From Raillietiella orientalis (taxonomy: Eukaryota), in NCBI GenBank assembly GCA_036172245.1, contig JAYWIR010000014.1, positions 3,348,001 through 3,412,000 on the forward strand: a stretch of DNA of 64,000 nt, given 5' to 3'. The position numbers and the translations under genes are program-made. Positions 1,751 to 61,399 of the stretch are shown one piece after another. Positions within the stretch are counted from its first letter, which is position 1; every line of letters starts with the position of its first letter. The notes below the pieces were generated by a model. It made no database searches. It worked only from the letters and a program-made list of their open reading frames with translations, and was not told the origin of the DNA.

Positions 1751-2399
1751 CTATTTCCTTCAGCTGTTATTTGCTATATCTCATTTCTGCTGAGATCGCC
1801 GCAGATCGGAAGGGGCCAAAAAATCCCTTTTAGGGATCCTATAGAGTTCTCGGATTACCAAAAGTCTCGGAGTACCAAAGAGATCGATGCATCGAGACGT
1901 CCGGACGGTGACTTTCACATAAACAACGAACGAGATCCACAGCGGTATATCCAAGTGCTCTTAAAGGATACGAGCCACACGCACTCGGGTCTAATATTGT
2001 ATGTGGAACAGAACCATTTCCTGCAAACAGGAGGTTAAAGTATCATCTGTGCCATTTACGTGACTACGAATTTGATCTGGCACAGAGAGAGATTTCTCGT
2101 GCCAGATTTCTCGCGTCTTTGCAGGCCCAAGCGACTGGCTCCTAGTCCAAAACGCTCGAAGAAGAACGAAGCCGGAAGATAAACATCGATTTTACATACG
2201 CCATGAGTTTTCTACAATGGTGGAAAGCATAGCCTCTGGCATCTTTATCCTCAGGTGCCTAGCACATTTCCTCTTCATCTTGGGAACCCCTCCATTAAAT
2301 CTTCACATCGACAGGCCTGAAAGTCGCTGCTCATGAGCTCGACTGGAATGCTAGGAGTGATCTACCTACGGCTGTGACTCAACACTTTCTAGAAACCCC

Positions 2400-4200
2400 T
2401 TTGCGGTCACTGACACCGATCATCCGGCTTTACCAGGCGATAGGAGGACATTCTCAACAGAATCTGCAGTTTAATCCAATACAGTAGCGAGTCTTCAGCA
2501 GACAAGAAAAAGCACTTCTTTGTGTTTGCTCTAGGACGCCAAGCGCAAGTGGTAAATCGAGAGGAGGTCTCACGCGATAGATGCGTACGAGTGCACACAA
2601 AGAAAGTTCGATGCTGGGCAGATCTGTCCGCGCTGCTTTTCGAAACCGAGTTTCCGGGTCAGCCCGCCCTCGCTGGAGACCGCGTGGATCAACGCACGTG
2701 CCGACATCGGTAGAAATGGCGGCAGCAGGAATGAATGGACCTGCTCGAAGAGCGCATGCCCTGCCGCCGCCGGAACCGTCGAGAGAGAGCCCGAGCAGCC
2801 GGCCTCTCCGATGGTGGTCGAAGGATAGTTGCCGGAATCATCTCGCGACATCATCCCGTGGCTATACCTCGACAAAATGAAGCTCCTTGAGGTTGTCTCC
2901 AGTATCTGATACAGCCGTGACATCCATTGGAATTATGGGGTCGGACATCCTCCCGACGAAGGAGATGCCCGGAGCACTGATGTCCCAGAGCTGGTACCAA
3001 CCGATGGGTAGGTGGGCAGAGAATTCTTGGTCCGGACTGCGGAGACGGGCGTGCCCGGTGACCGGATGTTTCTCACGGAATCCGAAGAACGAACCCGTGC
3101 GCAAGGACAGGCAGCAGGAACGCGGGGCGACGCGAGCGCCCAGAGGTGTCTGTGCTGCTCGCCAGCCCGGCGACGCTTCCAGCCACACCAAAGTCACGGG
3201 ACGGTGAGGAAGCGCTGAAGGACCACCTTCGGGGCGGCGCACACGGACCCCAATAAAGCCTAAGCTCGACGCCCCTGATATGGATCTTTTACCTCCACTT
3301 TCTAAATTATGTTCATAGCCTCTTGTCATGAGTAGAGGTTTGCCCCATCGAGACAACCGAGGAAGATTCGACTTCGCTTCAGAAGCTGAGGGGTCCGTCA
3401 GGATGGAGTCTTGCTATTGAGTAGCTCTTGGAAGCCAATCTTGGCTGGAATTCATAGTGGCGGCCAGAGAAGGTGTCACCATTTCCAGGAACGCGACCAC
3501 TTCTACGGGAGCTCCAACGACTCCATCTGCTTGCCCAGCTTCATGTGAGAGAGTGCTGCCTGTGTGACGCCGCCTTCGTTGCTTGTTGGACATGCTGATC
3601 ATAGCCATGCAAACCAGCTCACCAGGAAGAATCCCTGGACACATGAATGAGTTTTTGCAACGCCCCCTGCAGTTCGCATCCACGAAATCAGAAAGTCTGC
3701 AGGCGCTCAGAAGATCTCGATCGCCACGAGCACGCCTTTCCTCCTAGAAGAACTCCTGATTTTCCTACCCTTTCGCGGTTTTGCGATTTACGGGATGCAA
3801 GAACACTTTGACTCGGGAGCTGCTTCCTTCCTCCGGAGTCCAGTGTTCTAAGCCATGGCTCCTGTGATTCATCACTTGCTGGAGAGGAGGCACTGAAAAG
3901 TCAGATGTCCATCCGGGTTCTCGAGGAACTTTGGGAACCATCAGGCACGTTTGGTCTCCTCGAGGTGCGGTACTGTGGCGGGACTCGTTCTTGCTGACTT
4001 TTGTCTTTTCGAGACAACTGAGAGCTCCCAGAGGAGAGCCGAGCAGGAGTGTCTGCTCGTGCCGGCCCACCAAAGAATCTCTTCTTTCCCGTTTTCTCGC
4101 GCGTCACAGGAAGCAGACCGGAACCAGAGAAATCACGCGGTCTTTGCACACACCTTCTAGGAGATGAAGACCCTGGGGAAAGGGAGGGAGATGGCGAAAG
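2400..4200 (-). mobile_element. Decayed L1/Tx1-like ORF2 (RT N-terminus to zf-RVT); includes the left IR arm
   Basis: RGDRDLLSACRLSDFVDAN (like KGD..L.NWRPI), LQKLIHV, KW..YQGR, LGSVCAAPKVVLQ..LWCGW, HALFE. Confidence 0.6.
2504..3293 (-). repeat. Left arm of a 790-bp inverted repeat (post-RT part of an L1/Tx1-like ORF2)
   Basis: Reverse complement of 7201-7990; I could see only about 3 differences (1 substitution, two 1-nt indels). Confidence 0.97.
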
Positions 4201-4249
4201 CAAAGGAAAGCTCCGATTGCAGTTAATTTCGGTTCAGGACAAATTCAAT

Positions 4250-4480
4250 TTAGTGATTGCCAAATGAGGGCCGCATGCCACTTGAAAAGCGGGAGACCAG
4301 TTCAGAGGCATCTGTTTTCATACTGGATGCTGAGAGATTAAGTACGCACGTGTTCCCCCTCCAGCTGAGCTTTTGCGAAGCAAAGGCCAAGTAATTGGGG
4401 GATGACAAAGGAGGGGAAGGATGAAAAGAATTATGCGAGCAGCTTCCATTTTGGTGAAGTTTCCTGAGCACGTGGAGCAC
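4250..4480 (-). mobile_element. L1/Tx1-like RT thumb fragment
   Basis: KLSWRGNTCVLNLSASS matches the LS.RGK..VLN..A.S motif. Confidence 0.5.
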
Positions 4481-6689: not shown

Positions 6690-7200
6690 CCAACGCCCAA
6701 GACACGGCACTCCCTACGAATTCAAGGAAGGCGGCTTTCGGAATTCCCACAAGTTCGCTACGACTACGTGGCGCCCCCGTCGCCTGCATGCCACGCAGCC
6801 GCCACAGGCGCTCCGCTTCGAGAGCGGCTCGTGGAGTCGGCTCTCATCCGGCTGCCACGCAATCCCGGGGATGCAACTCCCATGGCCAAGACCGAGAACG
6901 GCCGCTTGCCGTGGTGTGTCCCGCGAGAGTGTCCCGGAGACAATCGCTTCGAGGAAAGGGGAGCGTCGGAGAGGGGAGAGACGAACAGGCAGAGTTCCCG
7001 ATTGCCTCCTTCGTCGCGTTGCTCTCTCCTTTGGGACGTTCTGTCCAGCGCCGGAAACCCACGCGACCAAGCGGCGACGGCCTCACGCCTTCGAGTAGGC
7101 CGCGTGGCGTGTGGCCGTCGCCAAGTGCTGCTGTTTCCGTAAGCGTTGCTGGGGAGGAAGAGAAAGAGGTGGTGACCATGGTGTGGTGGGAGAATGCGGC
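6690..7200 (+). mobile_element. L1/Tx1-like endonuclease/linker fragment abutting the right IR arm
   Basis: IQGRRL..YVAP, PRGVW, VWWE motifs in shifting frames. Confidence 0.45.
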
Positions 7201-7990
7201 GGTAAAAGATCCATATCAGGGGCGTCGAGCTTAGGCTTTATTGGGGTCCGTGTGTGCCGCCCCGAAGGTGGTCCTTCAGCGCTTCCTCACCGTCCCGTGA
7301 CTTTGGTGTGGCTGGAAGCGTCGCCGGGCTGGCGAGCAGCAAGACACCTCTGGGCGCTCGCGTCGCCCCGCGTTCCTGCTGCCTGTCCTTGCGCACGGGT
7401 TCGTTCTTCGGATTCCGTGAGAAACATCCGGTCACCGGGCACGCCCGTCTCCGCAGTCCGGACCAAGAATTCTCTGCCCACCTACCCATCGGTTGGTACC
7501 AGCTCTGGGACATCAGTGCTCCGGGCATCTCCTTCGTCGGGAGGATGTCCGACCCCATAATTCCAATGGATGTCACGGCTGTATCAGATACTGGAGACAA
7601 CCTCAAGGAGCTTCATTTTGTCGAGGTATAGCCACGGGATGATGTCGCGAGATGATTCCGGCAACTATCCTTCGACCACCATCGGAGAGGCCGGCTGCTC
7701 GGGCTCTCTCTCGACGGTTCCGGCGGCGGCAGGGCATGCGCTCTTCGAGCAGGTCCATTCATTCCTGCTGCCGCCATTTCTACCGATGTCGGCACGTGCG
7801 TTGATCCACGCGGTCTCCAGCGAGGGGCGGGCTGACCCGGAAACTCGGTTTCGAAAAGCAGCGCGGACAGATCTGCCCAGCATCGAACTTTCTTTGTGTG
7901 CACTCGTACGCATCTATCGCGTGAGACCTCCTCTCGATTTACCACTTGCGCTTGGCGTCCTAGAGCAAACACAAAGAAGTGCTTTTTCTT
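7201..7990 (+). repeat. Right arm of the 790-bp inverted repeat
   Basis: Reverse complement of 2504-3293. Confidence 0.97.
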
Positions 7991-9379: not shown

Positions 9380-10430
9380 ATCCATCTAGTCGGTTCGAAT
9401 GGTCACATGAGACACGTGGTTTCATGAGCTGCTTGATCAGATGAGATGAACTGAATGATCGGATCGCGATGGTTCAAAGTATTCAGTTCAAACCATTTGG
9501 GTGCTCAAGTGGTTCACACTGCCCTATGAATGGCGTGGAATGCGCAGATCCAAGGAAGGCACCCCTGTGCTTTCCATGTGGTTCATGAGTGCCATTGTAT
9601 TGACTGGAGTATTTCCAGTTCAGCGTTTTCTGAGAAATATCTCCATCTCTGGGTAACAGGCAAGTTAGACATCACCTCTGGGAGGTATGCTTTGGGGAGT
9701 AGCAGTGCTTGTCAGAGCAAAATCGTCTTAGGTCTTCAGTGATAGAGAAAATCCCAGTAGGGCTTGCCACTTGCTCCACGGAAGATGAGGCGTTGTATAG
9801 TTTTGATTCGCAAGAAATTTTACAAGATTTTTGCTACCGAAAAGTCAAGGAAAGTTGGATGCTGCGCCCGTTTCTTATCGGTTCGCGCGTGTCATTGTGG
9901 TGTCCGGATGATGTGTGTGACTGTTGTTCCATCGTTGTTATTCGTCTCCTATTTTTGGAAAAACTCACCTTGCGAATAGAATGAATAAAGGGAACGAATT
10001 AGAATCACGGCCCACCAATTTTTCCTATGCGAATGGGAATCGCCATGTTTCTGTTTGACCTCACGGCCGCAAGCGTGCAACCTAGGGATGGCCCGGACCT
10101 CGAGTACAGCCGTGCACGTCGACGGAATTCTGTGTCGTGCAGCTACGCTCATCGACGTTCTAAAAGTTTCGTTGGGAGAACGCGGAAGTTTCTCTGCAAG
10201 GACGCTCTTTACAGGATTTGAGCTTCGTTTCCTCGTGACTTCATCTTGGCTCATCTGAACTGGTGTGCCTTCAGTTTGAGGATGACACCAAGAGGTTGAA
10301 GCATCGCGGGCTTGAATCAAGGAAGAGGTTCGAACTTCGGGAAGGTACGATTTGGGTTTCAGACGGCGATGTTTGGTGTTGGACTGTTTAGCTGAGAATG
10401 CGCCACTTGCGGATATCCAGTTCATAAAGA
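9380..10430 (-). mobile_element. Decayed LINE RT fragment
   Basis: TFLDFSVAK and KLYNASSSVEQVASPTGIFSITEDLRRFC (like LY..ASS.V..NG..T..F.I..GVRQGC). Confidence 0.55.
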
Positions 10431-10559
10431 TTGCTCTTCTTGAGTCTGTAGCTGCCGAGCTGTTCGTATGTTAGCAGCACTTTTTTTTTTTTTTTTAATA
10501 GGCCCGTAGCGACTCCCACGAGGAGATCGTTACTATTGGCCTAGGACGATGGAAATCCT

Positions 10560-11580
10560 TGGGTTCTTCTTTTTCTTCTGACTTTGCTGTTCTTATTCGC
10601 TTTCTTTCAGTTTTTTTTTTTTTTCTTTTTAAGAGTTTTCTTTTTTTTGGTTCGCTAAGTACCTCAGAGCCGGTCGCGTGCCTCGCGGCGCACGTGGCTC
10701 TTTTTTTAAACATTAAACACACTATTTTGTTTCCACGCCCCTCCGCCCGCGGCAACCCGCAGGGCGGCGTTTAATTCTTCAGGATAGTGGGCACCCCGGG
10801 CTGGGGGTCCGCCCTATGAATCCAGGAAGGGCTCGGAGTCCGTTCCTCTCACGCTTGGGGAGGGATCCCCCCGGACGGTGAGGATCGCATCTCCCACCCT
10901 GGTTGTCTCCGAAGGGGAACCCCGAAGGGAATCTCCTTCCTCATTCTCTCCGGAGGGACACCCCCTGGGAGGGGGGTGGTCCTCTCCATTTTTTCTTCTC
11001 CGAAGGGAACCCGGAAAGGATCCGCTTGTAGGAATTTCCTCCCTGGAGGGAACCCGCAAGGGAACCGCTCCTTGTTCACTCTGAAGAGAACCCCGAAGGG
11101 ACGCTTCCGAAACTCAGAAGGGGCGCTGCAGCTTCCCGCAGGGAATCGCTCTCTCTCGCTTCCTTGTGCACTCTGTGAAGAGGCGACGACTCGGAGGGTC
11201 CCCCGGTGGGGGAAGGGGTCCGCTCTCCGTTGCACGACAGGAGGGGAAACGCCCCACTCCTTGAATCCTGGGAGGACCCGAAGGTCGACTCCGATTGTTC
11301 CGGCCTTCATCGGGAGCTTCCGGCTTAATCCACCTCCGGTGCCACGCCCGAATGTCTCGGCCAGCGCCATGGCAGGAGAAACTCGGAACTCGACGACGCA
11401 GTTGTGTCAGAGTTTCTGCCGGAGTATACGAACCCGCGACCCATGGTGCCACGCGCGGAAGCCTTAACCACAAAGCCTCCGACGCGGGCAGCTCTTTTGG
11501 GGGGAAAAGCAAACCCTTCATCCCCATCCTATCAGGCGGTGGGGCAAGCAAACTGAATTTGTCAGACGCGATCGTCACGA
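10560..11580 (-). mobile_element. 5'-truncated LINE 3' end (family C) with tandem-repeat 3' UTR and poly(A)
   Basis: Poly(T) on + near 10612-10630; array of roughly 40-bp units at 10830-11110; homologous to 38510-39020 (shared CTTCTCCGAAGRGAACCCGGAAAGGATCCGCT). Confidence 0.65.
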
Positions 11581-31825: not shown

Positions 31826-33529
31826 TTAGTCGAGATAGGAAAGGAAAGGATGCTGGGAATCTTTGGATATCGATGCCGCAGCAGGACTTGGGGAACGTTT
31901 TGAGCATATCGAGAGAACATTACCCCCTGGTATCATGAAGGTGGTGGGATGGTAACCGAAAAAAGGCGTAATCGACAGCTTGTCAACGAACGCCACAGCC
32001 TCTTGACCTGGCTCGACGGAATAGACCTTCTCAGAGACAGAGTCCTCCTCGTCGGGCTTGACGACAACCATGGAAGTGAGCGGGGTCACGAAGTTGTACT
32101 GGTGAATCCCAGCGGGGTCTTTCCAGAGTACTCGTGAAGCCACTTACCTCCAGGGACAAATTCAGAGCTTTCTCGAGCGTCTCGTTCTTCTTGGATTCAT
32201 CTTCAAGTATTACTTCCTGATCTAAAAGATTCTGGATGGTCAGATAAGCCCAAAGTCTTCTCAGAAAGTTTCCATAGAAGCTCTCATCTTCCTCAGATCC
32301 GGGGCGGCGGATCCCTGTCTCATTCCAAGCAGGATTCCAGTCAGCGATACAGTGGAAGACCAATGACCCGTTGAATGAAGTTCCCTCGACGGTTGAAGCC
32401 ATGTTGGCAGCACCTGACCGCAGTTTACCGGCCACAACAAGCTCTGAACCACTGAAGTAGGTGTCAAAGTTCGTCGCAGTCAGGCTATCATTGTCGACGC
32501 TGTCGAGGTATTTCACGCTGACTTTGCGTAGTAAGGGAGCGGAAATCCCTTGGTAAAAGTCCCTCAGCTGCAAGGTGGCATCGGAGTCCTCGTAAATTTT
32601 ACGACTGAGACCTCCGTTTTGCAACGACAATTTCCGAAGGAAGTCGAAGTCCGCCTCTTTCCCGAACCGCAAAGAAAAGATGGGAATCTTCCTGTCGTTG
32701 TTCTTTTTTACGTTGGAAGCTATCTTTGTCACGTTCACCTCGCCCACGGTAGGCTCTCCGTCAGTCAGGAAAACGATCAGGGGCACGAAATTCTCTGGCA
32801 GCGTGCCGATGCCGAAAGAGGTTTGCTTCAGGGCAGCCGTCAAAGCATCATCAATAGCTGTGCTTCCTATGCCTGCAAGGTTGTTGACTACTTCTTTCGC
32901 ATGCTCTATTGTTTCATTGGTCACAGGCACAGGGCTCACTGGCTCAGCAAGGGCTTTGCAGTGGGTGAGGCCACTGCAAGGTCTATGGCTCCTTCCCACC
33001 GTAGTGGAGGAAGTAGGAAGAGAGGTCGGCTTACGAGATGCTCCTGAAACTTCCCAGATCTAAAAATAAACGAAAAATTTCCTGCTCGACAGCTCCAAAG
33101 GGTGTGTCGTTGTCACTTTGATGTCGGTGTTGAACTCTATCAGGGTGAAGTAATCCTCTGCGTTCAGACTCTCCAGGATAATGTGCATGGCTTCCTTGGT
33201 CTGCTCCAGCTTCCTCCCGTACATAGATCCGCTGGTATCCAGGACAAATACGATGTACTTTGGAACGACGGGAATGTTTTCGGGAGAGAAGAAATGCACA
33301 AAATACCCATCGACCACCTTGATGAACACCTTCGGAGTGAACGCCATTCGGAACACCTCCGCGGACAATACCTGAATCTCGTAGGTCTGCCCTCTGTCCA
33401 GGTCATACTCCACGATGAACTGTCCAGAGATTCCATCATGAGACAAGAGTTTCTGCTGAACAGCATTCGGGTAGTAGGATACCAAGACTTTGTTGGGATT
33501 CTCATAAGTGATCGTAGCGTCTTTGTTCT
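31826..33529 (-). CDS. ITIH-like exons 5-8 (vWA domain and following region)
   Basis: Introns 33371-33318 (54 nt), 33116-33060 (57 nt), 32147-32099 (49 nt); DTSGS MIDAS, IVFLTDGEPT, FSGSELVVAGKL. Confidence 0.92.
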
Positions 33530-36500
33530 CTGGAATTGCATGAAAATTATTCATTCTGCATGCAGAAAACAAGAAGAAAACCCACAGCTGATCGGCGAAG
33601 GAGGAAAAGTAAGATTAATTTCTGAGGCCATTGATGTTTTTCTCCCCCTAGAGAGCCCCAGATGATTCTATTGAGATATGAAAGTAGACCGTTAGCTGAT
33701 TTTTTCCTAAGAAAAGAATCCTCTTCTCCAAATCCAGGAATGTCAAGCTGGAGAATTTCTTCATTCATCTTGCAATGAGCTCTCTACCATCCCTTTTTCC
33801 TGCTCGCAGGATGTGATCATGGTGTCACCGTCGAAGCCGCTTTGTTGGTTCTGAGACTTTGAGCCCCTTGCTATGCCATCCATTTGGATCTTCACCGCCC
33901 TGGTTTGTCTGCAACTACAAAAAGTTATACCTCGAAGCCATTTATCCCATTCGTTTTGTCTTTAACATGCTTGCACTTCTTCAATTGGATCTTCTCTACA
34001 TCTCAGCACATTCAGTTTGAGAAGACTCCACGTTCGAAACCAAAGCGACCTTCGCCCAAGAAGCAAGAAGTCTTCACCATCTGTTCAGGAAAACTCGTTT
34101 ATTTGCATCGGTCTTCGTTTTAAACTCCAAGAACAGAATATCTTCGCACACTTGAATGCGTTTAAATATTAAGATGTTGGTTTATTTTCTACTGTTTAGA
34201 AGCGTCGAGAAAATTTTGTTTGTATGTGGCATCGATGACCATAAAGAAAACACTTTTAGAACATGGTATCGAATTCGAGAGGGAAACGGCTCCCACTCTT
34301 CTTGGCTTCGTTCTTCCCCCTGCCACGCTGCCATTGAACGGTGTGATCGCAGGCAACGCCGATACAGAAATCAAGAACCTTCTGTATGACCTTCTAATGT
34401 TGATTTCGTTTCACTCAGCAAGCATCTGGACCAAATTGTTTACTAACGTTTTACGAAATGTTCCCTCTTGTCTGGTGTTAAAAGACAACTCGGCATTCTG
34501 GAATGCGAGCTTATGGCTCCAGGACAGCCTTCTGTTCCGTCACTCCAAAAGTACACTCCCCAAGAGAAATTAAAGGACAAGTACGCTCGCTCTCTGATTT
34601 TGGTTTCAAGGAGCAAATGGTTCGTTCACGAAAACTACCTCAGCAACGAGACGAGAGAACCGGGCACGAGGATGCTGGAAAAATTCCCGCGAGATCTCAA
34701 CTTCCCTGAATACATGGACCAAATAAAACGGAGCACCCAAAGAGATCTTTTCTAGATTATTAGAAAAACCCAAGAAGAAATGGTTTTGAAAAGTTCCCAA
34801 TATTGGCCTCAGCACTGTTAATAATCTATAGTTTTATACGATTTAGTGTTTCAACATTCATAATAAAATCTCGAAACCATGAAATCATTTTTTCCTTACC
34901 TTCGTAGGAGCATTCTATGCATAAAGTAGAATCCTACCAAAAATGCAAGAATGCATTGCCCCCAGGGCGCGATATAGTTTTAACCGCGATGGCTGGAAAC
35001 AGCATTAAATATGAATTAGTACAGGAAATCGGCTTTCTGCACAAGACCCAGAGTGGGTATTTCTAGGGGCACGCAGGCCAAGATCTGCAGTTGCCGACAC
35101 ACCCTTGAAAGCTGTTCCTCCGTAACACCCGAGACAAAAGCACACGAAAGGGATCGCGCAACGAACAGCCGAGCGTGCGTGAAGTGTTGCACATTCGAAC
35201 GCATAGCTCTGCAGCGTTCAATGTGTTAAATTTAATAGGCTGGGATACTATGCAAAGAGCGTGCAATAGCGGAGTTGACTCCTACGAACAAGTACAAACC
35301 TTTGAACTCAGTTCTGATCCTGACATCGTTGCGTACTTCAGGCAAACGCAACGTGGTGATGGGTCTGGATTCCTCGATCGAAACGTCCACTTTCAGGTCT
35401 TTTACTATCTGACCAGGGTTTATGTTGATGGCATGCTCGTACAGATGCCTCTTTCGTTTCAGAAACTCTTCGTAAACCAACTTGTACACCACCTTCTCTC
35501 CGGAGGCGACGTTAATGGAAACTTTGAAGCGGTTGCTGTCTCTTGACCTACGAGTGAGTGCAAAGTAAAGAGACAAACAGTTTTTTCGAAACTTCTAAAA
35601 ATAACAAAACGAATTGAATCAATCCATCGATCCCAACCATCCAAAGAGGAATTTGGAAATTCTGCCTCGTAAAACAAACGAATAGCCATGATGAACACTC
35701 CTACTGGCAAACAACTGTTACCGTTAGTGATGGGATCTTCGCAAAAGGGTACGCAATATCTTCAGTGAGTCGAAGCACAAAAGCTACATCCATCTTTATT
35801 TCGACTCTCCTGGCAGAGCATCTGGAACTACCCAGAACTTCCTTCCCAGTTTTGAACATGCCACCTCTTGGAAACCCTCTTATAAACCCTTGCATCATGA
35901 CCAACGCACGACTCGAAATTCTTTCTCCAGCAAAGGAAAAAATTTTCCTTGATAGAGAACGTTTCGCTCACTTCACGTAACGTTTCCTTGGAAAAATCAA
36001 CCTGGGCTTATTCGGATCTTGGTTCAGGCGGTGGACGATTTTCGATTAGACAGACTGCGACTGAAATTCTCCTGTCTTCGCAGACACCCCGTTCAGCATC
36101 GAAATCAGAAACAAATGATGGATTTCAACTTTTCACAAATGCTTTGCTGTTATCCTTTAGGTAACAGCAACGCTTGTTCACGGACAACAGTTGTTCCCAG
36201 ATCACACTCCCCCCTATATGATCTATGAAGATCGCACAGGAAGATTCATTCTTCACTATCTGCGGCATACAGTGGTATCAAAGTGCTTAGTCTCTAGCCT
36301 TCCTCCAGCCAATCAGGAAGTACTAAGATCGAAAGGAGTCTTCTCGTCCCCTGACTGACTTCTTTTTTTTTTTTTGCACTAAACGTCAAATTCAGCATCA
36401 GAGAGCACGCTAGCACCACTCGTACAATCTCTCATCCTCACTACCGGGCGAGTAACTGATCATTGTTCAGCTACAGCATTCAGATAACCTTAGTTGTTTA

Positions 36501-39500
36501 TGCATCTAGGAATACAATTCTAAATGAAAATCACATACATAGTCAGATATTGTTACACCGTTTCACATATGTAATCATTCTTATTTAGCGCATCAACATC
36601 CGAGTCCTGGATAACTCGTTTCCGTTCGATTTCACTCCGGTATAAAAGATATACTTGTTGTCCCAGACCCATTTGTCACTGCTTTTGCAGTCAAGTCTCC
36701 ACCTCGCTGTCTGTCGCTGATCTTCTACTTTATCAACATCTACTGCTTTATCTAAATGAAAACCAAAACGAGTCTTCCCGGATCACATCTCCCTTCCTGG
36801 ATTCATTTTTCGATACGTCTGCTGATTTACCAGATCTCTCAAATACCAAAACGAATATATACAAACACGGAGGAAGATAAAGTTCATCACGATGAACTGA
36901 TCGAGACTCGGAACGAGATTTTATGACGAGGAACATCAATTCTGGGGGTATGCCGGCGACTTCAGATCCAGCCTCACAAACGTGCAACATCTGCGATTGG
37001 ATTCAGCTCTTATCTTCAGCCCGAGTTGCTTTCTAATAATTGCGAAACTTCGAAGCTTTTCTTAGATGCAAGATCAAGTGCAACCACCTTGTTGGTCCTG
37101 CTCCCAGAATCCACGTGGAAACCCATGGGAAACCAAAGTGTAATAGCGTAATGGAAAGCCACACATTTTGCCGCAGGTACCTGGTCATCCTAGCTGGTTC
37201 TACGAACAGGCGGGGAATTTTTTTCTCTTCGCCTGAAACGAAATGTCACGAACCCTTGCGTACTGTTTTTTCTTTAAAACACTTGGAAAGAGGGTGAGTT
37301 ATGCAAACAGATTCCCAACTGTTTCTTGCTATGGTGATTTTTTTCTGCAACGATTCGTTGCAGATACTTTTTCAATTTGATACTCGTAAACTTTTTTTTT
37401 TTTTTCGTTTATTTTCGTGTTAGTGCGGCAATACACGAACAGAAGACTTGAAATCGGGAATTATCGTTTTCTTGTCATTTAATTTATTTTCAACAACCCT
37501 ACAATTAATTTATTACGCGTGTATTCTATGTTTGTTAATATGCTACTCATTCGTGGCATCCAGCGATGGAAGCGAACCTGCTCTAAAATATGGATGTTTG
37601 ATAAAGTGCCAGTAATTTAAGGGAAACGCATCGGAACTCATTCAGTGAGCCCCGTGCAGACCCCAAATGCTATTCCTTCAACACCCCACTGCAGCGGACG
37701 GTGCGGCATTTTTCCCGACTCCAAGAGACACCAGGATCTCCTCATGACCTGAAGATGAGAAACAAAAGTGCCGAAATGCTACGAAAATAAAGCGAATCCT
37801 TAGTCAGCAAAGCTGACTAAGGATGCGTTTCGTCCCCACCCTCCTCCCCCTCGTGTGGGATGCAAACTCGCAGAAATGCAGCATCACTTCCACCGAACCA
37901 TTCTTGCTGCAAGCAAAGTGTTATTCAACCATTTCTTGGTATTCTTGACGTTTACACACTTGAAAATTGCAGTCGCGGTTAATGGGAATCTTTTTCAAGG
38001 ACGAGACTCTGCTCACTTCCCATCCTTGCTGGTTCCAGTCTTCCTTAGCAAACTCCACAAAGTATCCCCCCCCCCCACACACACACACAGCTGGAGAAAT
38101 TTGTATCTTATTGCTACCTGGACAACTCCTTAGTGTGCGGAATTCGGTGGACGTTTAGTCGCCACATTTGACGTGCGTGCACGTAGCAACACCCTCCATG
38201 GATACCCTTCTTCTGCCGGAATTTGAGCATCGTGACTTTACACTGGAAAATTTTTTCAACTGCTTGAGAAGACGGTTGCACGGATCGGATCGGATTGTCA
38301 CCGCGTCCCACTCTGGCTGTCAGAAATGCCTTCTTACACCACTGCTTCATCGGTCAGCATCTTCAGGCAGAGATAAGGACGGAGTTCGCCTGCTGGTAGC
38401 GACCAAAGCACGCCGTGCATCCAAAGAAAAACATGAAAGGAGAGCCCATAGAAAACTGAAAGACATTCAGCTCATCGACTCATCACTGACAAACAACCCT
38501 TTCATCAGTCTCTCTTTTTTTTTTTTTCGGGTTTTTCCTTCTTTTTGGTTCTCAAGGAGTGCTGAAAAACTGTTCGCTTCCTTAGGGAAGGCTCACGAAA
38601 CTCTTTAACGTTGTCCACGCCACCCGAGGATGCGTGCAACTCGTCAAGTTATTGGGGATCACTCCGGAGGGACCACCTTATGTATCCAGGGAGGCTCCAG
38701 AGCAAGGAGTTCGTTCCTCTTATGCTTGGCAGGAAAACCCCGAAGACAAACCACCTCTTCCTTATTCTCTCCTGAGAGACCATTCCTCATTCCTTCTCCG
38801 AAGAGAACCCGGAAAGGATCCGCTCCTTGTTTGCTGCCGCGAAAAGAACCCGAAGGAATGTTTCCCAATTCCTCTGGGGGGACGCTTCCCGAAGGCAGCA
38901 GCGCACTTCCCCGCGCTCTGGAGTATCTCACCCAGAGTATCTCACGAGGGGAAGGAGGCTCTATATTCTACAACCGGAGGGGAATCCTGGAAGGAAACCG
39001 GCTCCTTGATTCCTGGAAGTGAACTTCAAATCCTGCAAAATTCGCAAAGCAAAATCGAACCAACTTTTCTCTGCGAGCCCTCCTTCCTCTGAATCTTAGA
39101 AAATCTTAGAATGAGTCTGCAAAATCTTCCACTGTGGAAACTGGGAGTGGTGTGTTCCGCACGCTGCAGTGCTCGCAGCCTCCGCATTGGAGCACTACTC
39201 AGGTTGCAACGATCTTCTCCGTTCGAGATGGTACGGATACAAATTTGCACGCATCCAAACAGCAGCGCTGAGGGGGAGGGAGGGGAAACCGCTCACAGCA
39301 GCGCTGATCTCCGAAGTGTCCCAGCAAATCATCAGTCTGAAATGGTCCTGCAAGCGTCTTGATTTCCCGAGCAGTTCCATGGACCTCTTGCTGCACTCTC
39401 ATATGTGAGCACCATCAAGCAGTCACCCGGCTCAGTGGAGTTCATTTCTCCCGAAACGAATTAATGATTATCGTCATCGGAAGGTCTGCACGAATCCATC

Positions 39501-42500
39501 TCTGGAAGCCGTGTCCCTGGACACGAGATCGCTTGCGGACACCCGTACGAAGAAGACATACTGCCTTCGTGAGAGATGGGTGATCTTGCCACGGCTAAAA
39601 CACTCCCACGCACTCCGCATCCACCTGCAGTTTTCGGAGGCAGATCCACACCTGTTTTGTTCCTCCGTGCGTTAGCATGGAAGTTCCCTGTGGTCACGCA
39701 AATCCCTCTCGGGCTTTTAACGCGGAGTCCAGAGAGGACCCGGCATTCCGAATGGCGCGGTGATGGTCTCTTGTGGGGCTCGCTGCGCGTCCTTCACAGA
39801 CGGTGCTCCTTTCGGCAAAAATCGGTGCTTATTGCGCGTTCGGGAGAAGACTTCACAGAACTTGCAAGCATTTCACTGAGCGCGCGATGGTGAAATGATG
39901 GCGGATGATAGTGGTCCTTGGGGTTGGAGAGGTGAGACGCACCCGGGTGCCCCGTCGGAAGTGCCAGCGAAGGCACACTTGCACGCGAGACAAAAAAAAA
40001 CAAAGTTTGCCCCAGAAACAACGCCGTTGCTGCCCTCTGACGGAAGCACAAAGCGCAGCTGCCAACGAGCTCTTCTCGAGTTCAAAGCAGGAGTCGCAAT
40101 GGACCACAACGCGGCTGCGTCACACAGTGAAGCCATGAACAGCCTGCACCGTTGTGCAGCGAACGCGAGATCCAGGCAGCAAGACGCGAAGATGCCACGG
40201 TGATGAAATGACGGCGAGGCAGCTTCCGCGCGGACCACCACACGCAGGCAAATGATTTTACCGGCAGTGGGGACGTGACCCCACAAACCAAAACATATGG
40301 AACGACTGGTAGTACGACATCATCGACTGGAAAGGAGAGAAACTAGGGCGACAACGTGAGGATACATTAACCTAGTCCCCCAGGATGGCTAATCACACGA
40401 AAAGTTCAGTGCCACGAGGTCGGTCCGCTCCCCCCCCCTTCTTGAAGAGAAAGAGCAACTAAATTCTCGCTTTCTTCCACAGTTTTCCTCCCGTGACGCA
40501 GGAGTCTGGAGGTCAGGAGTGAGGCGGGAGAGGAAGAACACGCAGAAAAGAGCGATTTAGAGGCTTCCAGCGCTCTTCCTCATCCCCGGCTGCATCGCAG
40601 TGCCCAGTGGCCTTCACCTTGGGAAGCGCCCCCTTCGACGCTCTCAGACCGTGAGCGTCGCGTCGAGCGGGAATCCGATGCCGCTTGCCTGAGACTCCAG
40701 AGACTCTAGAGAGCATTTTTCTGGTGACACGAGTGAAGCCAGGGTGCCGACTCGAGGGACAGTGAATTGTAAGGGACGCGGGCGGCGAAAGCCCTCGTTG
40801 GTCAAGGACTGTGTAGAAGCAGCCTCCGCGACAAAAGCGTAACGCTGCCCACCGTCTATTCCCGGAAGCTGTTCACTGGGAGGTAGCATTCGTTCCTAAA
40901 AGAGTTTTTCTGTAAAAGGACGACACCCCGGATCCCCTTGCCACGCAGCGGAAGCCGAAAGATGAAACCCGCCGGACCAGCTACTGCCGCCGCCTGCAGG
41001 CACACATCCTCGGACACGCGCACAGTCAACGTCCGCTCGCCGCCACCGATACTCACTCAACGTGACCCGCGGTCCGACCTCTCTCCACAGCCACCTGGTA
41101 GTCCAATTTCGCTTGCTCCTTCTCCTTCACGTAGGCGTAGTGAGTTCTGTTCTTCACCTGGCTGAAAAGGGAGGAAGAGGGCGGAGAGCGAAGGTCAGCA
41201 AGAGGGGGGAGGGGAGGCGGAGCCTCTCGCAGCGCGCTCCTTACATCGAGAAGTTGGAGATGAAGGCGGATTCGGGAAGCAGGAAGTCGAAGGTGGTCTC
41301 GAGGGCTCGGGAGTCGGCGTTCTTCATCCTGCTGGTGACGACGGTCGTGGCGTAGCGCCATTTTATGGTGGAGTTGATGTGCAGGTGCGTGACCACCAGC
41401 TTGGATCCCGGTTGGCTCGTCTGGAACACGGGATTTTGAGATCACCGCTCGCCGCCGCCGTCCCTTCGCGCCGCAAGGGGAAGAGCCACTGACGAGCCAA
41501 TAGAAAGCGACCCCCGAGGACGACGTGCCTCCCGGACTCCAAGAGAAGCAGCGGCGATCCTCTTCCTCCCGCGGCAATCCCGGAAGGCATCCAAGAAACT
41601 TCCGCCCAAGAAGAGCGAGCAACGACGGAAGGCAGTCCCGCCGACTCCGCGCGGCGCCTTCCCAGAAAGAGACGCAGGAGAAGCCTCCAGGAAGTGGGAG
41701 ACGCGCCCATTCCAGAGAGAGGGAGAGATTCTTGGCGCGGGAAGGATCTGGAGGTCGTCCCTCATCCGGGGGATCCAACGCAAGTTGGCGACCCTAGTGG
41801 CAGCAGCCACCCCAGGGGGCGCCCCAGCCGCAGACCAGAGCAACGCGCGTCTCTTCCGTGACTCCCTTTCCTCGAGGGAGTCCCAGAGGCGCACACCCGT
41901 CGCGTTCCGGATCCCTTGGGCGACGGGCCTGCTGATGCAGGGATCGCTCACGTCGTCGCGTGGCGGGCTCACTCGCGTCCGGGTGGCCCGCCGCCCTCTC
42001 CAGGAACGCCCCCGCAGGGGAGAGCTGAGCGTGCCCGGTCCACCCGAATCTCCTGCCGTCCGCTCGCCACGGGGAGGAGCAGCTCCCGGGAGATGAGGCT
42101 GCGGGAGCAAGAGCTCAGCTCCAGACGCCGAAGGGGCGCTCCCTGAGGAGCACGGCGGCCGCCGTCTCCGCCGAGGGAGCTCGGCGCCGAGACATCCCCC
42201 GGCGGCGACGCTGCAGATCCCAACGTTCGTCTCTGCGCCGCCCCAGTTCGGGAACATCCTCATCAATCACCGGGAGTCCCGGTCCGCCAATGCAAGAACC
42301 CAGGTACAGTGATCAGGAGGGCAAGCCTACCTGACCCTCCTCCTCAGGCACCGCTACGCTTTCCCACGAACCCCGAGATGAAACGAAGAGGAGGGGCGTG
42401 CGCACTCCGGAGTTCGACGGAGCGCGTGCGCTAACTGGTTCGGAAGGGGAGCTTCCTGGGGAGCACGGCTCTGGCGACGAGGCGAGTCAAAGAAGATCAT

Positions 42501-54450: not shown

Positions 54451-54599
54451 TTTCTTAAGGAGTGGTCCTCATGTTGAACCTCTTACTTTGCCGTGTTGTT
54501 CTTGAGAGAAGCCGGAGACAAATCGAAGAGCGCAGAATCGAACAACGGAGGGTTCTTCGGTAGAACGAGGATTTTGCCCCAAAGACGCCAGAGTTCTAT

Positions 54600-56440
54600 T
54601 TGAAAAATAAATCACAAGTCAGAGAGGAACAGCATCTCCTGAATACAAGAAATATCGAAAAAAAAATAAAAAAAAGAAGTCCACTGGGGATGACCAGCGG
54701 CACGCAGGCTGGCATCTAACAAAGAAAGGAACGAAGGAAGGGGACAACAAATAAATGAAAAAAAGACGGGAAAGTAGGGACAGGGGACTTTGGTTTGATC
54801 CGTTTCTTTCTTTCTAGAGGTCTCAATCTCACTGATGACCTCTTCTGGCAGATGGATCACCTTGCAGCCGTTCTCATCAAGGCGGCTGCGATGCTGGTGG
54901 CTTCTCTTCGCTGCGAACGAGACTCCAACACATGGCGGACTGTCACTATGGCGCAGATGCAACAGATGGTTGCGATCACAGCGCCGTCTTCATCTCGGCC
55001 GTCTTCTTTCTCGTCTTGAATGAATAAGCGCCACAGCAAGTCTGAAGCGCGGGGTCCTGTGGTCGACAGAGCGCCGAAGCGCGTCTCCGCCACATATCCT
55101 CCAGGGTACCGCATATCCTCCAGGGTACCAGTCTAACAGGAGGCGCGGGAACGATTCGATCGCCCCGCACCTCAAGCAGTTCGGGAAGATAACTCCTCTG
55201 AGAAAGCAGGTGCCTGCGCTGATTGCACTGGAATTCTTCGTGCGCAAACATCAGAGCGTCCCGTTTCCAACGGAGCGGGAACACGGAAGTGTCCGCACAC
55301 AGGGAAGAGACCACGAGTTCTTCGGGAGGCACAGCAAACAGGTCACTCCATCGAAGCAGTCCCTTTTCCTGGAAACGAGGAGTGGAGGTGTTCACCAACT
55401 CGCTCGTCTTGTAGCCGTTCAGTTTTTCGACTCCTGCACTGTTGCAGAACTCCCACCGCGACGGTTGGCTGCTGTCATTCCTTGCCATGAGGACAGACAG
55501 CGCTGTAGCATTGATGATGATGCACTGGGATCTCGGGATCTCCCGTGCAACGACCTCCGACATCACTGGACACTGGGAAGTGTGGACCTGAACTGTGCCA
55601 GGTGCGGGGAGCGGGAATCCCTCCCGCACCTACTTGCGAATTGTGTTGCCCCCCCGACCCCTCTGGAAACGCTTTTCCGCATTCCTAGGAACCCCTGGCG
55701 GCAACTCCAGGGACGTTTTACGACCTCTCCTCGTACGCGGCAGCTTCGCTAGCAGCTCTTTGCTGCCTACAAGGGTAGCTGCCTGGAGTGAAGCAGGAAG
55801 AGGGCAGAGAGACAGGAATGCCATCCACTTTGCTGCTCGCTTCATGAGGATGGCAACAAGATGGTGCCACCTGGAAAACAACATCCAGAAAATGCTCACC
55901 AGCATCTTTGAAAGGATGCAGAGGATCGCCTCCAGCAGAACGTGGTTTCTTCCCGTACCCAATCCCATCCCTCCGAGTTTATTTATTTATTTTTAATTTT
56001 GGTTCTTTTTTCTTTTTGTTTCCCCCTCTCTTCTGCTGCCGTGGCGGACCTCACCGGTCTGAATTCCGTTAACACGCAGGTTTGCTCTGGAAAGGACGTG
56101 TTTGGCACCTACTGTCCAACTACAGGGACTGTGATTGTTTATTTTTATATGAAACAAATGCCCCGGAGCACCCGGGTGATAATCTTAGGTGGCATCCTAG
56201 GACTCCAATACCTCTTGCCTCCAGGCTTTCCAGTTTTGGGGGCAGCAGGGTGAGCCACCATCCAAGGGTGAGCTACCAGAAGTGAAAACAGATGCCTCGG
56301 GGGGCAGCCAAATCCGGTCCCCTTACTGTGGGTTGTGCGAAAGAATTCCAGCGCTTCCAGCGCATCGCCGGAGGATGTGGAGTACCGGAGCGCACCAGTG
56401 CCAAATCCATAATTTGCCACAAGGGAGAACGAGGTTTAAA
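54600..56440 (-). mobile_element. LINE family A copy 1 (3' part of ORF2), interrupted by family B at about 55511-56160
   Basis: CLRCGAIESFPRLLLD zf-RVT; colinear with 56450-58330 on both sides of the insertion. Confidence 0.75.
55511..56160 (+). mobile_element. LINE family B copy 1 (5'-truncated), nested antisense in A1
   Basis: LPCNDLRHHWTLGSVDLNCARCGERESLPHLLANC zf-RVT; homologous to 57165-57671. Confidence 0.8.
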
Positions 56441-56449
56441 CCCGATCAC

Positions 56450-58330
56450 GCCGGAACGTTTATTTTGCAAAAAAAAAAAAGCAAACCACAAGTATCAGGG
56501 GAATTGTATCCCCTTGAAAAAGCAAGAAAAGCCATTAAAAAAAAAGTTCTCCCGGAATGACCACCGACACGCAGGCGGGCTTCCGAAAAGTGGGGAACGG
56601 AGGGTGGGACGATAAATAAATAAAAGAGAGGGGAGGGCGGAGACAGGAATTTTTGGTAGAAAACGTTCCATTACTTCTAGAAGCGACTCTGGATGGTGGC
56701 GATCTCCCTGGCGACTTCTGGTAGCTGATGCCACCTTGCTGCTGTTCTCCTGAGGGCTGCTGCCATGCTGGTGGCCTCTCCTCTCCGCGAACTTGCTTTT
56801 AACACATGACGGACTGTCACTATGGTGCGGATGCAACCGATTGTAGCGATCGCAACACCTTTCCCCAGTCAGCCTCCGGTGAAGAAGCGCTGCAGCAGGT
56901 TCGTGGCAGCGTCCTGGGGTTGACGGAGGGCCGAAGTCCTGCAGGGCACTACCGTTCTACAAGAGATGCGGGAGTAATTACATCGCTCCTCACCTGATGC
57001 AGTTCATGGAGGCAATCCCCCCGGAAACCAGGTGTCTGCGTTGATTGCACTGGAATCCTTAGTGCACGAATAGCAGAACATCCTGTTTTCAGCGTAGCGG
57101 GAACACCGAGGTGTCCACGCAATGGGAAGAGACCACTAGTTCTTCTGGGAGCACACCAAGCAGCCAGCATCCCTTGGTGCACTGACGAACAATCCCAGGG
57201 ACGTGATGAAGCGCCTCTTAGTGCACGTTGCCCTTTCGCCCGCCGCATCCCTAACAGCTCTTTGCTGCCTACGCGGGACTGTGGCGGTCTGGAGCTACGC
57301 GAGAGGATGAAGGCACGATAGGAACGCTACCTGCTTCGCCCTGCGCTTCCTGAGGACGGCAACTAGAAGTGCCTACCTGGGGCATACTCAGATGGAACTT
57401 TCCGGCATCCTGGAAAGGATGCAGAAGATGCCATTCAGCTCCCGATGATCCTTTTCCTAACCCTCCCAATTTTTTATTACATGTTTTTTGTTTCATTTTT
57501 ATTTCTGTTTGCCCCCTTCTTCCCCCCCCTTTCCGCTGCCGAGGAGAACCTCATCGACCTGCGTGCCCATTAGTCGACAGGTTCCGAACTCATTCGGACA
57601 CTGTAGGGCCGACGACCCTACACATGTGTGTTCATTCTTAATAATACGCGTGACGCGTGACCGGATGATAAACCAAGCAGCTCACTCCACCGAAGGATTA
57701 CCTTTTCTCGGAAATAAGGAGTGGCAGTGTCCACCAACACGCTCGTCTTGCAGCCGTCAAGGAGTTTTTCGACTCCTGCAATGTTGCAGAACTCCCATCC
57801 CGCCGGTTGACTGCTGTCATTCCTTGCCCTGAGAGTAGACAGCGCTGCAGCAAGGGGTGAGAGGGCTAACCGGGACATTGCGTCCAAAATTGCAAGAGAT
57901 CCCCCAGTAGCTTGCGTAAGAGACTTTGCAGCGGCTGCAGTTCCTCTGGGTGCAGTTCCAAAGTAGTAGTCCAGTGCTCCAGAGCTTCCTCCTGCCGGAG
58001 ATTCCAGTAAATGGGGCGGCAGGAGATCCATGGATGGGCTAACAATAATGAGGACAGTCGCCTCAGGGGGTGACCGAATCCAGTCCTCCGGCGTGAATTG
58101 GGCGGCAGCAGCGAAAGAAGTACTACAATGGCAACTCATCGTTGAAGGATGTGGGAGAACGAGGGAAGGAGGAGAAACGAATCCAGTCATCTGGCCGTCA
58201 GTTGACGAGCCAGATGACGAGCGCGTGCATGTTGAACTCCTAAAACTGAGGCTCCATTCTGTGATAAAACGAAACGTCGCCTTCCTTGCATCCGGTCTGC
58301 ATCTAACCTGCCACCGTCGAGAGTCGCGGT
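56450..58330 (-). mobile_element. LINE family A copy 2, interrupted by family B at 57165-57671
   Basis: 56660-57163 matches 54800-55341; 57672-57852 matches 55335-55510; 58000-58155 matches 56230-56385. Confidence 0.75.
57165..57671 (+). mobile_element. LINE family B copy 2, nested antisense in A2, with 10-bp TSD
   Basis: Flanked by ACCAAGCAGC at 57155-57164 and 57672-57681; homologous to 55677-56090. Confidence 0.8.
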
Positions 58331-58379
58331 GGATACATCAGAACAGAGGCACGGCGTCGAAAAGAGCATTACAGCAGCA

Positions 58380-59230
58380 TGAATGATGCTCTACAGATCC
58401 CGTCCTGCGACCGGAATAGACCCCGCCCACCTCCTGTATGCTGACTACGGCGTGGAACTGGGATAAATTCTTCTGGAAGTCGTGCTCGCCCAGTGCCTGC
58501 AACGATCCCGAGTCCGCGAGAAGGGACATTGAGTCTCGAACACTCTTCAGACCGGAAATGATTGCATCTTCGAGAGAGGAGCCAGGGGAAGGGAAAACTG
58601 CGGTATCCAGAAAGAGTGAATGAAGATCCGAAGCTCGTGTTTTGGAGATCACTGGATCCGAAGGTCAAGATTTCTCAGAGAAGGATCAAACTCATTGGAA
58701 CATTGCCGCTTCCAACCACCCTTTTCTCCCGGAGCAACACCCTTTGTCAAGCAAGAGAAGGAGGGAATTGGGTTGGCACTTCTTTCTCCACCCCCTCCCA
58801 AACATCCTGAGGGGATGGTGGATCCATAGGAAGGAGGAAGTGGAGCATTGATTCAGGTGCGAACCGGGCTCCTGTTCCTCGCTTGCGGCCGCGTGGCCAC
58901 GGCGTCCGCGCGCGGCACCAGCGCCGTGGGCTCGAAGTTCCCCTGCGGGATGACGCTGACAATAGTTTGGGATCCAGAGTGGTACTGGTAGGATGCTGCT
59001 CTGGTCAGCGGCCCTACTACCCCCCGATAAGCCCGGAAGTAAGAGCGGACCTTTCGGATCCTTCCCGGGAATCAGGGAGTGATTTCTTTCGGGGCGGCCC
59101 CTCCTTGCCTCCTGCTCAACTCGGGTGCGCGGCAATGGAGGAGTGCTCCCGCGCGGCGGCGTTGCCGAGCCGCTCCGATGCACCTTTTCATCCAGATTTC
59201 CGGGGCATTTATTATAAAAAAATTATAATA
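58380..59230 (+). mobile_element. LINE 3' end, probably family C-related
   Basis: IDPAHLLYADY..LLEVVLAQC, VFWRSLDPKVKI; AGAGCGGACCTTTCGGATCCTTCCCGG resembles the reverse complement of the family C unit; A-rich tail. Confidence 0.5.
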
Positions 59231-59329
59231 AAAGTCGTAACATCAACAAAATTGTGGTAGAACACTTGTCTCTACCACGTATGGAGGACTTGCCAAAAAC
59301 CGGTACGCAGACCGGTGAGGTCCGCTGAG

Positions 59330-60140
59330 AGAAAACCACAAAAAAAAGAAAAAAAGGGGAGGAGGAAGTTTTCTGGGGAGAGGAGGGGACTGGGAAGGGA
59401 TCACTGTTCGCCTGGAGACGCCTTCTGCAACCTGTCTAGGATGCTGACAAGTGCTGTTTTTAAGTTTTCTAGTGGGGCCATATTGAGGCGGTCTTAAAAA
59501 AGATCCGCGTCCAGTAGATGGTACTGTTCAGGATGCTGACAGGTGCTGTTTCTTTGGATTGAAGAAAAGGTCATCGGGAAGCGGTCCTCAAGAAGATTTT
59601 CTCTTAATGGATGGCATCGCGGCTATGGAGACCTTTTCTTTCCGCGTTCCACTTTGCCGCGATTCCTCGCACACAGCAGAGAATTGCTAGAGATGCTGCT
59701 GGCAGCAGGGTGTCACGCGTAAAGAGGCGCCCAAAGGGATGTCTTGGGGTCACCTACCGAAATTTTGAGGATCAACAAGAGTCGATCCCAAAGGGAACGG
59801 AGGTCGACACAGTCTATGATTAAGTGCACGAAGGTCTCCTCCTCGCCTCACTTTGCACAATGGGCATCGACACTCCGCCGTGTCCAATGATGGAGGCGTG
59901 CTTTGCATGGGATTCCCCCATGCAACACTAGCAACGCCACCTCATGCCAATTGAGGGGGAAGGTGCCACTGTCCCAACACGCTGGGGCCACTTCAGCTCC
60001 TCCGGAGTATCGCGAGCAGCTCGTCCCAGCGTGAAAGTCCTTTTGTCGGGACACCCGGGGTCGCAGAGTCCGCTAGGTACCGAGTTGTACGCGGGTGTAA
60101 AAGTTTTTTCCTGCCTTGAATAAGGCAGGATACTTCCCAC
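59330..60140 (-). mobile_element. LINE family B-related copy 3
   Basis: IPCKARLHHWTRRSVDAHCAK*GEEETFVHLIIDC, clearly similar to the B1 zinc finger. Confidence 0.75.
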
Positions 60141-61399
60141 TTTGCCGGTTGATTGCTGTCCTCCCTGTGAGGTGAAACAACGGTTCTTCAGTATTCAGCG
60201 GACCACCACCACTACCAAAAACAACAAGCTGGAAGGACGCGGGAAGTGGCAAGGACTAACCAGGATTTTGATCAGGAGATGTGGAAAGCAGGAAGAGGAC
60301 GTTGAATTCCTTGCAAGCGTCGCGGGCCTTGGCGACGGAGGAGGGAGCTGCCTTCCGGTGAAGGAACGAGAGGTCGCAGGCGCAGCGAAGCGGACCGCAT
60401 ATAGCATAAACCAAGGAACCTCTCTTGGGAACTCCTCTCTTTGAAAACTCAGTGTTCATGATGGAGATCTGAGGAATTTTCATTCCTCCGAAGCATGCAT
60501 CAGATGATGAGCATCAGCCTGCATCTTCATTCGTGATGTCGGTAAAATTTTCTTAATTTCAGATTAATTGCAACATTCCTGGGAGAGACCAGCGAGTTTC
60601 AAAACGTACGGGTTGAACCACACAACACATCAGAGCAACTGGATCAGCTGTAGCTGTAGGCAGCCTTTTTGTCCCAGAGGACTGCAGGACCGCTCCAGAA
60701 ATGGGCGATGGGTCTGTGGTCCGTTCTAGCAATTTCTTAAATTTAAAATTCATAATGGTCAGTTTTCTATTTAGTTTTTGCTTCCTCTACGATATGTGGA
60801 TGCTCTTTAATTGCGACGATCCAACAGTCAGTTTGCGTTGAGTTTGTCGATGCTGAAGGCGGCCGCAACGGAAAAGGAATGAAAGAGATAGAAAAACGAG
60901 TTTCTATGGTGAAAGAGCAGTTACATCCATGGAATATGGAACGAAACACTTATAGATGGGGCGCAAAAAGATTGCAATTCTAGAGAAAACCTCAGACGTT
61001 TCTAGACTGAATTTTCAAATTCGTTAAAGTCTTCTCAATCTGTTTCCTCGGTAGATAAAATAGACTGGTTATTTCTAGGCGTGAAAAGTTCTTTTTTTTT
61101 TTTTTTCATGGTTGTTTCATGGAACGAGCAAAGAAATAGTTTAAATTATTGGATATTTGTATGGAATTAGTGAACTTTTTTCGTAAGGCATACTGCAAAA
61201 AAACACCAACTAACCAAAATGATATGAAGTATTAATTTTTATTGATAGTTTACCATTGTGGCTGATTAGCAATGCATCTTAGCAAAATTTCCTCGCGTGA
61301 ACGTTTCCTCTTTTTTCTGTTTTCCTCTGTCAGCAGGGGGCTGCAAACAGCAGCGCGGGGCTGGTTGTGAAGATTTTCATCTGCAAGCCTGCTCCAGTG

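Follow-up and report, generated by a model that had tools for sequence, protein, structure and literature searches.

A LINE family of Raillietiella orientalis that inserts preferentially at one site within a sister LINE's ORF2

In the 210-Mb, 491-contig assembly that holds the 64-kb stretch of DNA analysed here (the window), the LINE family B2 has a hot spot of insertion at one site in the ORF2 of another LINE family, A (A, B1, B2, D and Z are family labels coined for this analysis). We consider it probable that B2 belongs to the L1 group of LINEs and has an APE endonuclease with a sequence preference, that its best target is this one site in the ORF2 of its sister A, and that it is a member of a local radiation of LINEs. 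Each such insertion destroys the ORF2 of a competing LINE.

The nested LINEs of the window

Self-comparison of the window revealed two tandem, minus-strand copies of family A, named A1 and A2 (67% identity over 752 nt and 83% over 179 nt), each of which is split by a plus-strand, 5'-truncated LINE, B1 in A1 and B2 in A2. The initial annotation had correctly recognised both A copies and the inserts that split them, but it had placed the end of A2 at 58330 instead of about 58152, and had assigned both inserts to a single family B. The 3' part of A1 (3' end, 3' UTR and the end of ORF2 with its zinc finger; 54571-55510, minus strand, from the self-comparison and an A reference) contains an empty B2 target site near 55335. 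It is followed by B1, which lies antisense to A1 at about 55511-56184 (plus strand; the similarity to other B1 copies begins at 55511-55540), and by the 5'-truncated remainder of A1 (56185-56422, minus strand; 954-1199 of the A reference). According to the A alignment, the 3' part of A2 (56435-57164, minus strand) and its 5'-truncated remainder (57673-58152, minus strand) carry the two copies of a perfect 10-bp target duplication, the left one (57155-57164) ending the former part and the right one beginning the latter. Between these two parts lies a 508-bp, 5'-truncated B2 (57165-57672, plus strand), antisense to A2 at the hot spot, i.e., codon 1017-1018 of the A ORF2. B1 has no target duplication, and about 95 bp of A were lost at its 5' junction.

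The target of the A insertions is present, with no strand assigned, at 54562-54570 (9 bp), 56423-56434 and 58153-58164 (12 bp common to these last two copies). In the window, its 9-mer is restricted to 54562, 56426 and 58156, which mark the outer boundaries of the A1-A2 pair and the join within it; these three target copies bracketing A1 and A2 show two successive family-A insertions at one site. Further right, a single-copy spacer that is not A (58165-59185, no strand; its matches are itself and three of only 50-60 nt) separates A2 from B3 (about 59186-60157, minus strand). B3 is a 5'-truncated member of yet another sister LINE family (58-60% identical to B1 and B2) and indeed lies outside A, in single-copy DNA, as had been noted for a third B-like copy. 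The reported relatedness of A and B also holds, since both are ORF2 3' ends, corresponding to codons 865-1182 of the near-intact sister copy L241. No LINE domain was found by Pfam in the decayed reading frames of the window.

B1 and B2 share 64% identity over 352 nt and differ in their 3' termini, and each has closer relatives elsewhere in the genome (71-77% identity for B1 and 78-83% for B2), which rules out the single family B. The two composites are separate events, as had been proposed, made by different families. On the A reference, their 3' (priming) junctions are about 290 bp apart (663 versus 954) and their 5' junctions about 186 bp, not the 170 bp or so given at first for the distance between the insertion points. 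As B1 and B2 are two families at different sites, the window alone provides no evidence of repeated targeting; the proposal of a LINE that prefers a sister LINE in a fixed antisense orientation, argued from these two events, fails on that ground, and B1 displays no clear preference, but the proposal holds for B2 genome-wide. The window's B1 junction was found in one of 28 other independent BLAST matches to B1 (L012; 981 bp, with a 13-bp duplication), and the B1 target motif is weak. B1 in A1 is best explained by a different family that inserted there by chance or with a weak preference, and the junction common to L012 and the window may reflect a minor hot spot or an old shared ancestry, which are equally compatible with the data. 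Two other candidates for B1 in A (L214 and L216) turned out to belong to a sister family inserted in another LINE (83-84% identity, versus 66-68% to A).

The composites had also been described as tail-out imperfect inverted repeats; their arms are related and opposed, but they share just 56-60% identity, and their longest exact matches measure 8-10 nt. Since each arm has its own 3' end and the arms are so little alike, we rejected a twin-priming 5' inversion of a single element. Elsewhere in the window, we observed an 801-bp inverted repeat (2504-3303 and 7191-7990; 99% identical, about 3.9 kb apart) and, upstream of the composites, minus-strand exons (32031-33614 and about 41053-41160) of a split VIT/vWA (inter-alpha-trypsin-inhibitor-like) gene.

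B2 at the A site across the genome

A sequence begins at the same base in five of the 29 best other BLAST matches to B2. A 16-nt 3'-end pattern gave 201 matches, and the 90 examined comprised 44 B2 copies and 46 copies of other families with the same terminus. The BLAST and pattern sets were merged without using the flank as a criterion, and the window copy and five repeated or duplicated loci were removed; 15 of the resulting 68 B2 copies (22%, 95% CI 14-33%; 14 of 67 when one more tandem pair is counted once) occupy the A site, all of them antisense. Seen from the A side, B2 is present at the site in 10 of 29 other A copies. The A-site pattern (up to one mismatch) occurs at 85 places, of which a hand count assigned 41 to a start with the B2 3' end, 42 to the A left flank and two to neither with certainty; near-duplicates are among these places, at least one place is the left duplication at a site already filled, and the pattern is biased towards the older type of A.

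The other 53 of the 68 B2 copies lie elsewhere than in A, including eight at a second hot spot, one site of an abundant repeat; the specificity of B2 is therefore loose. This repeat, which we had considered as a possible B3-like LINE, is actually unrelated; it is dispersed, is present in the window at 10400-11500 and 38500-39050, and matched 44 of the 244 collected sequences. Nor is the A sequence the 3' tail of B2 itself, as it is absent from those 53 copies, and A stands on both sides at 15 loci. None of the 82 unique B2 ends in the collected loci falls at the homologous site of B2 itself, and all 14 B2-labelled ends mapping to codons 1012-1018 are within A sequence. Fixed-site preference in a multicopy sequence, a Tx1-type trait, is displayed by B2 and not clearly by B1 (1/28).

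One ancestral A-with-B2 composite might instead have been multiplied, through A-driven retrotransposition, segmental duplication or gene conversion, a reading that we regard as very improbable from the following lines of evidence. First, among 26 distinct B2-filled A loci, A continues in register on both sides at 15 (its 5'-side sequence being absent from the stretch read at the other 11), and a clear 10-15-bp target duplication is seen at seven of these 15. Second, 13 of the 15 two-sided loci hold B2 alone (the other two have further nested inserts), and they do so in 13 lengths (138, 508, 706, 737, 910, 994, 1300, about 1340, 1392, 1499, 1669, 1815 and 2051 bp). Third, we built a tree from the final 450 bp of 69 B2 copies, omitting short, interrupted and duplicate ones; it rejected a single clade for the 20 A-site rows as against the 49 others (p-AU 5.5e-5; 16 changes versus 17.5 when shuffled). 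A second tree, with 168 bp of A flank in 43 rows (23 versus 20), likewise rejected a single clade of filled hosts (p-AU 0.007); both trees are largely star-like. Fourth, the nearest relatives of some A-site B2 copies are copies outside A.

In favour of multiplication, duplicated pairs exist (four B2 pairs), together with conversion-like tracts. Moreover, B2 bodies 96-98.5% identical, with differing flanks and lengths, lie on the same contig (L128/L129 and L063-L065; 97.8% and 98.5% among them), and the four best matches to the B2 of the window are all on the contig of the window, which suggests local conversion, recombination, or recent local copying or hopping. Conversion or local copying may also lie behind the absent left flanks at some filled loci, thereby blurring junctions. 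The different 5' junctions largely refute the single-composite reading, and from the differing B2 lengths and both trees we rejected one duplicated composite. Taken together, the 13 lengths, the target duplications and the lack of a single clade for B2 or for its hosts indicate that the A-site B2 copies are independent target-primed insertions.

Target motif and the excess of insertions in A

The 41 B2 junctions outside the hot spots yielded the motif ~gCAC[A/G]|CCAA (its left half from only 16 sites, where the left side could be read from the duplication), both sides of which are shared with the A site. The older A site matches it almost perfectly, and the homologous site of B2 itself departs from it in the left half (three copies read). 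The presence of the motif on both sides of off-target insertions is consistent with a B2 specificity carried by the endonuclease domain.

LINEs insert by target-primed reverse transcription, an established pathway. By analogy with it, the B2 endonuclease would nick the sense strand of A and the freed 3'-OH would prime cDNA synthesis off the B2 RNA; the asymmetric motif would set the antisense orientation, and the A copies would offer B2 many harmless landing sites. The motif, being common to the off-target and the A sites, accounts for the site and the orientation, and not for the 22% frequency. With 600-3000 A copies as input (an estimated copy number), an additive motif model predicted 0.3-5% of the insertions at A, and the probability of at least 15 of 68 at a rate of 5% is 1e-6. 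The perfect 10-mer occurs 1638 times in the genome, versus 1177 times for the reversed control; with about 1200 background perfect 10-mers, the per-site excess at A is roughly 4-16-fold, and could be near 1 at the upper limit (2/16). Since the A site is used above the motif prediction, longer-range recognition or survival bias would contribute. Of these, recognition beyond the short motif is likely from the model and the counts, and survival bias may be a partial source of the excess.

It could also be that B2 evolved a steep preference for a short motif regardless of A, that hundreds of A copies match this motif perfectly by chance, and that insertions persist better there. The motif on both sides of the off-target sites, the 78% of B2 copies outside A and the background of perfect 10-mers, which is of the same order as the number of A sites, all agree with such a coincidence. 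Nevertheless, we hold it unlikely, because the additive motif falls short of the frequency observed, because about half of the near-consensus A sites are filled while more than 1000 background perfect sites are intact, and because the coincidence would have to yield recurring sites in LINE ORF2 sequences repeatedly, across several sister families.

A younger, supported A clade (99/97) has the B2 site empty in all of its 14 sampled copies, as compared to 10 filled sites among the 15 remaining A-side copies (Fisher p 0.0002). When the youngest members of this clade are compared with older A, six positions of the 15-nt target window differ, versus 15% divergence overall (binomial p 0.018), and the most diverged window within 780 nt of A overlaps the B2 site. 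It is possible, as judged from these sequence differences, that the younger A escaped B2 through a change of the target site. Two observations count against the escape, namely that most B2 copies are about 20% diverged, and that the changes in the target site also change amino acids; alternatively, the mobility of B2 may have been over before the expansion of the young A. A comparison of the old and young A sites could show directly whether mobile elements evolve so as to evade each other.

Classification and sister families

The L1-group domain tests were run on the RT of A and on the sister L241 (2541-8030). L241 is a near-intact, full-length LINE 72% identical to B2, inserted antisense within another family with a 12-bp duplication. 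Its ORF2, which contains one stop, matches Exo_endo_phos (1e-13), RVT_1 (7e-23) and zf-RVT (6e-5, under the curated cut-off), and its best PDB match is the L1 ORF2p (1.6e-47), R2 being far weaker. Its ORF1 has CCHC knuckles, with a weak Pfam match (E 0.0075). An ORF2 comprising an APE endonuclease, an RT and a zinc-binding domain, a separate ORF1, a variable 5' truncation and target duplications of 8-17 bp are all traits of the L1 group; the poly(A) tail of the narrow L1 clade is absent, as a fixed 3' end joins the target directly. This terminus (the last 30 nt) is common to all families and tail-less, and has an AATAAA signal followed by a short G+C stem. A functional stem-loop there was rejected, for although predicted at five of five ends it is no better than in shuffled sequences (z -1.3 to +1.05). 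RT identity among three families is 65-75%. None of 42 homologs was a labelled Tx1 protein; in the RT tree, these three families group with one metagenome protein in a long-branch clade (SH-aLRT 100) whose neighbours are not resolved.

The LINEs of the Tx1 clade offer the closest parallel. In the accessible parts of two reports (PMC4494074, PMC6719617), Tx1 of Xenopus targets Tx1D, the crocodilian Tx1-Mar targets Mariner-N4_AMi, Tx1-8_Crp and Tx1-4_AMi target LTR retrotransposons, and Tx1-9_AMi targets Harbinger. B2 would work like these transposon-targeting elements, being an APE-type LINE that loosely prefers a fixed site within another mobile element of many copies; furthermore, tandem insertions around a target duplication, as in A1/A2, are described there for SINEU-3. 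The Tx1-clade targets given in the same parts are DNA transposons, LTR elements, RNA genes and microsatellites, whereas B2 targets the coding sequence of a sister LINE from the same radiation. The available part of a study of Zepp (Chlorella, Coccomyxa) and ZeppL (Chlamydomonas) describes L1 LINEs nesting in their own copies, in one centromeric cluster per chromosome (PMC8226300). Like them, B2 is an L1-group LINE that enters LINE sequence, in nests rich in 3' ends; as far as that part goes, B2 differs from them in entering a different family at one base instead of its own homologous site. B2 and A are dispersed over many contigs, with nested clusters also present, and not gathered in one cluster per chromosome. 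In what is accessible of this literature, the transposon-targeting LINEs described so far are directed at DNA transposons, LTR elements or themselves. A full-text literature search, to which subscription papers and Repbase reports were mostly out of reach, revealed no LINE that targets a fixed site in a different LINE family; the supplementary target tables of PMC4494074 may bear on this point. Mammalian L1 (ORF2p structures 8sxt and others) shares with B2-type families the endonuclease-RT-zinc-finger ORF2, the 5' truncation and the 8-17-bp target duplications, whereas these families have a short G+C-rich end in place of poly(A), a gag-like CCHC ORF1 and GC-rich, family-specific motifs.

Contrary to the Tx1 cases, several sister families insert here into each other. 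We scanned 311 3' ends (233 unique) in loci collected around LINEs, positions being given as ORF2 codons of L241; this LINE-centred collection inflates the fractions that follow, and does not thereby explain the recurrence at one codon across diverged hosts. D-type elements insert in the sense orientation at codons 148-149, in the endonuclease GDFN motif of sister LINEs (13 rows mapped; junctions in, e.g., L112, L122, L123, L130, L132 and L188), and 22 near-identical young flanks of this type may be segmental copies or recent insertions. Z-type elements insert antisense at codons 564-570, at the RT DLRKAFD motif (four mapped and two more with the same flank). Antisense sites also recur for young A (5 of 23 A ends at codons 434-437), for a sister family of B1 (4 of 14 ends at codons 54-57) and for another family (3 of 4 ends at codons 1125-1128). 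Insertion orientation is family-specific. These closely related LINEs with different readable motifs are a natural series for tracing how the specificity of APE endonucleases changes.

The sense site of the D type means that neither an always-antisense orientation nor retention as hairpins can be a general rule. The initial annotation had proposed that such composites are kept because their read-through gives hairpin dsRNA; this RNA would feed small-RNA silencing. Most recurring sites are antisense, and the arms of the two composites pair slightly better than shuffled ones (-329 versus -270 to -299 and -424 versus -355 to -380 kcal/mol), but the diverged arms reach only about 30% of the energy of a perfect duplex, and retention does not explain a one-base precision. 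We consequently find this proposal hardly credible. Returning to preferences of the endonucleases, we tentatively raise the idea, itself somewhat doubtful, of an arms race of LINE against LINE, as opposed to LINE against host, in which a guild of LINEs would have family-specific endonuclease addresses in each other's ORF2, some of them at catalytic motifs that are hard to change (GDFN, DLRKAFD), with A escaping B2 by a change of site.

Apart from the LINEs, L099 carries a single-exon frame of 474 codons (3033-4454), the product of which presumably resembles an otopetrin-type membrane protein.
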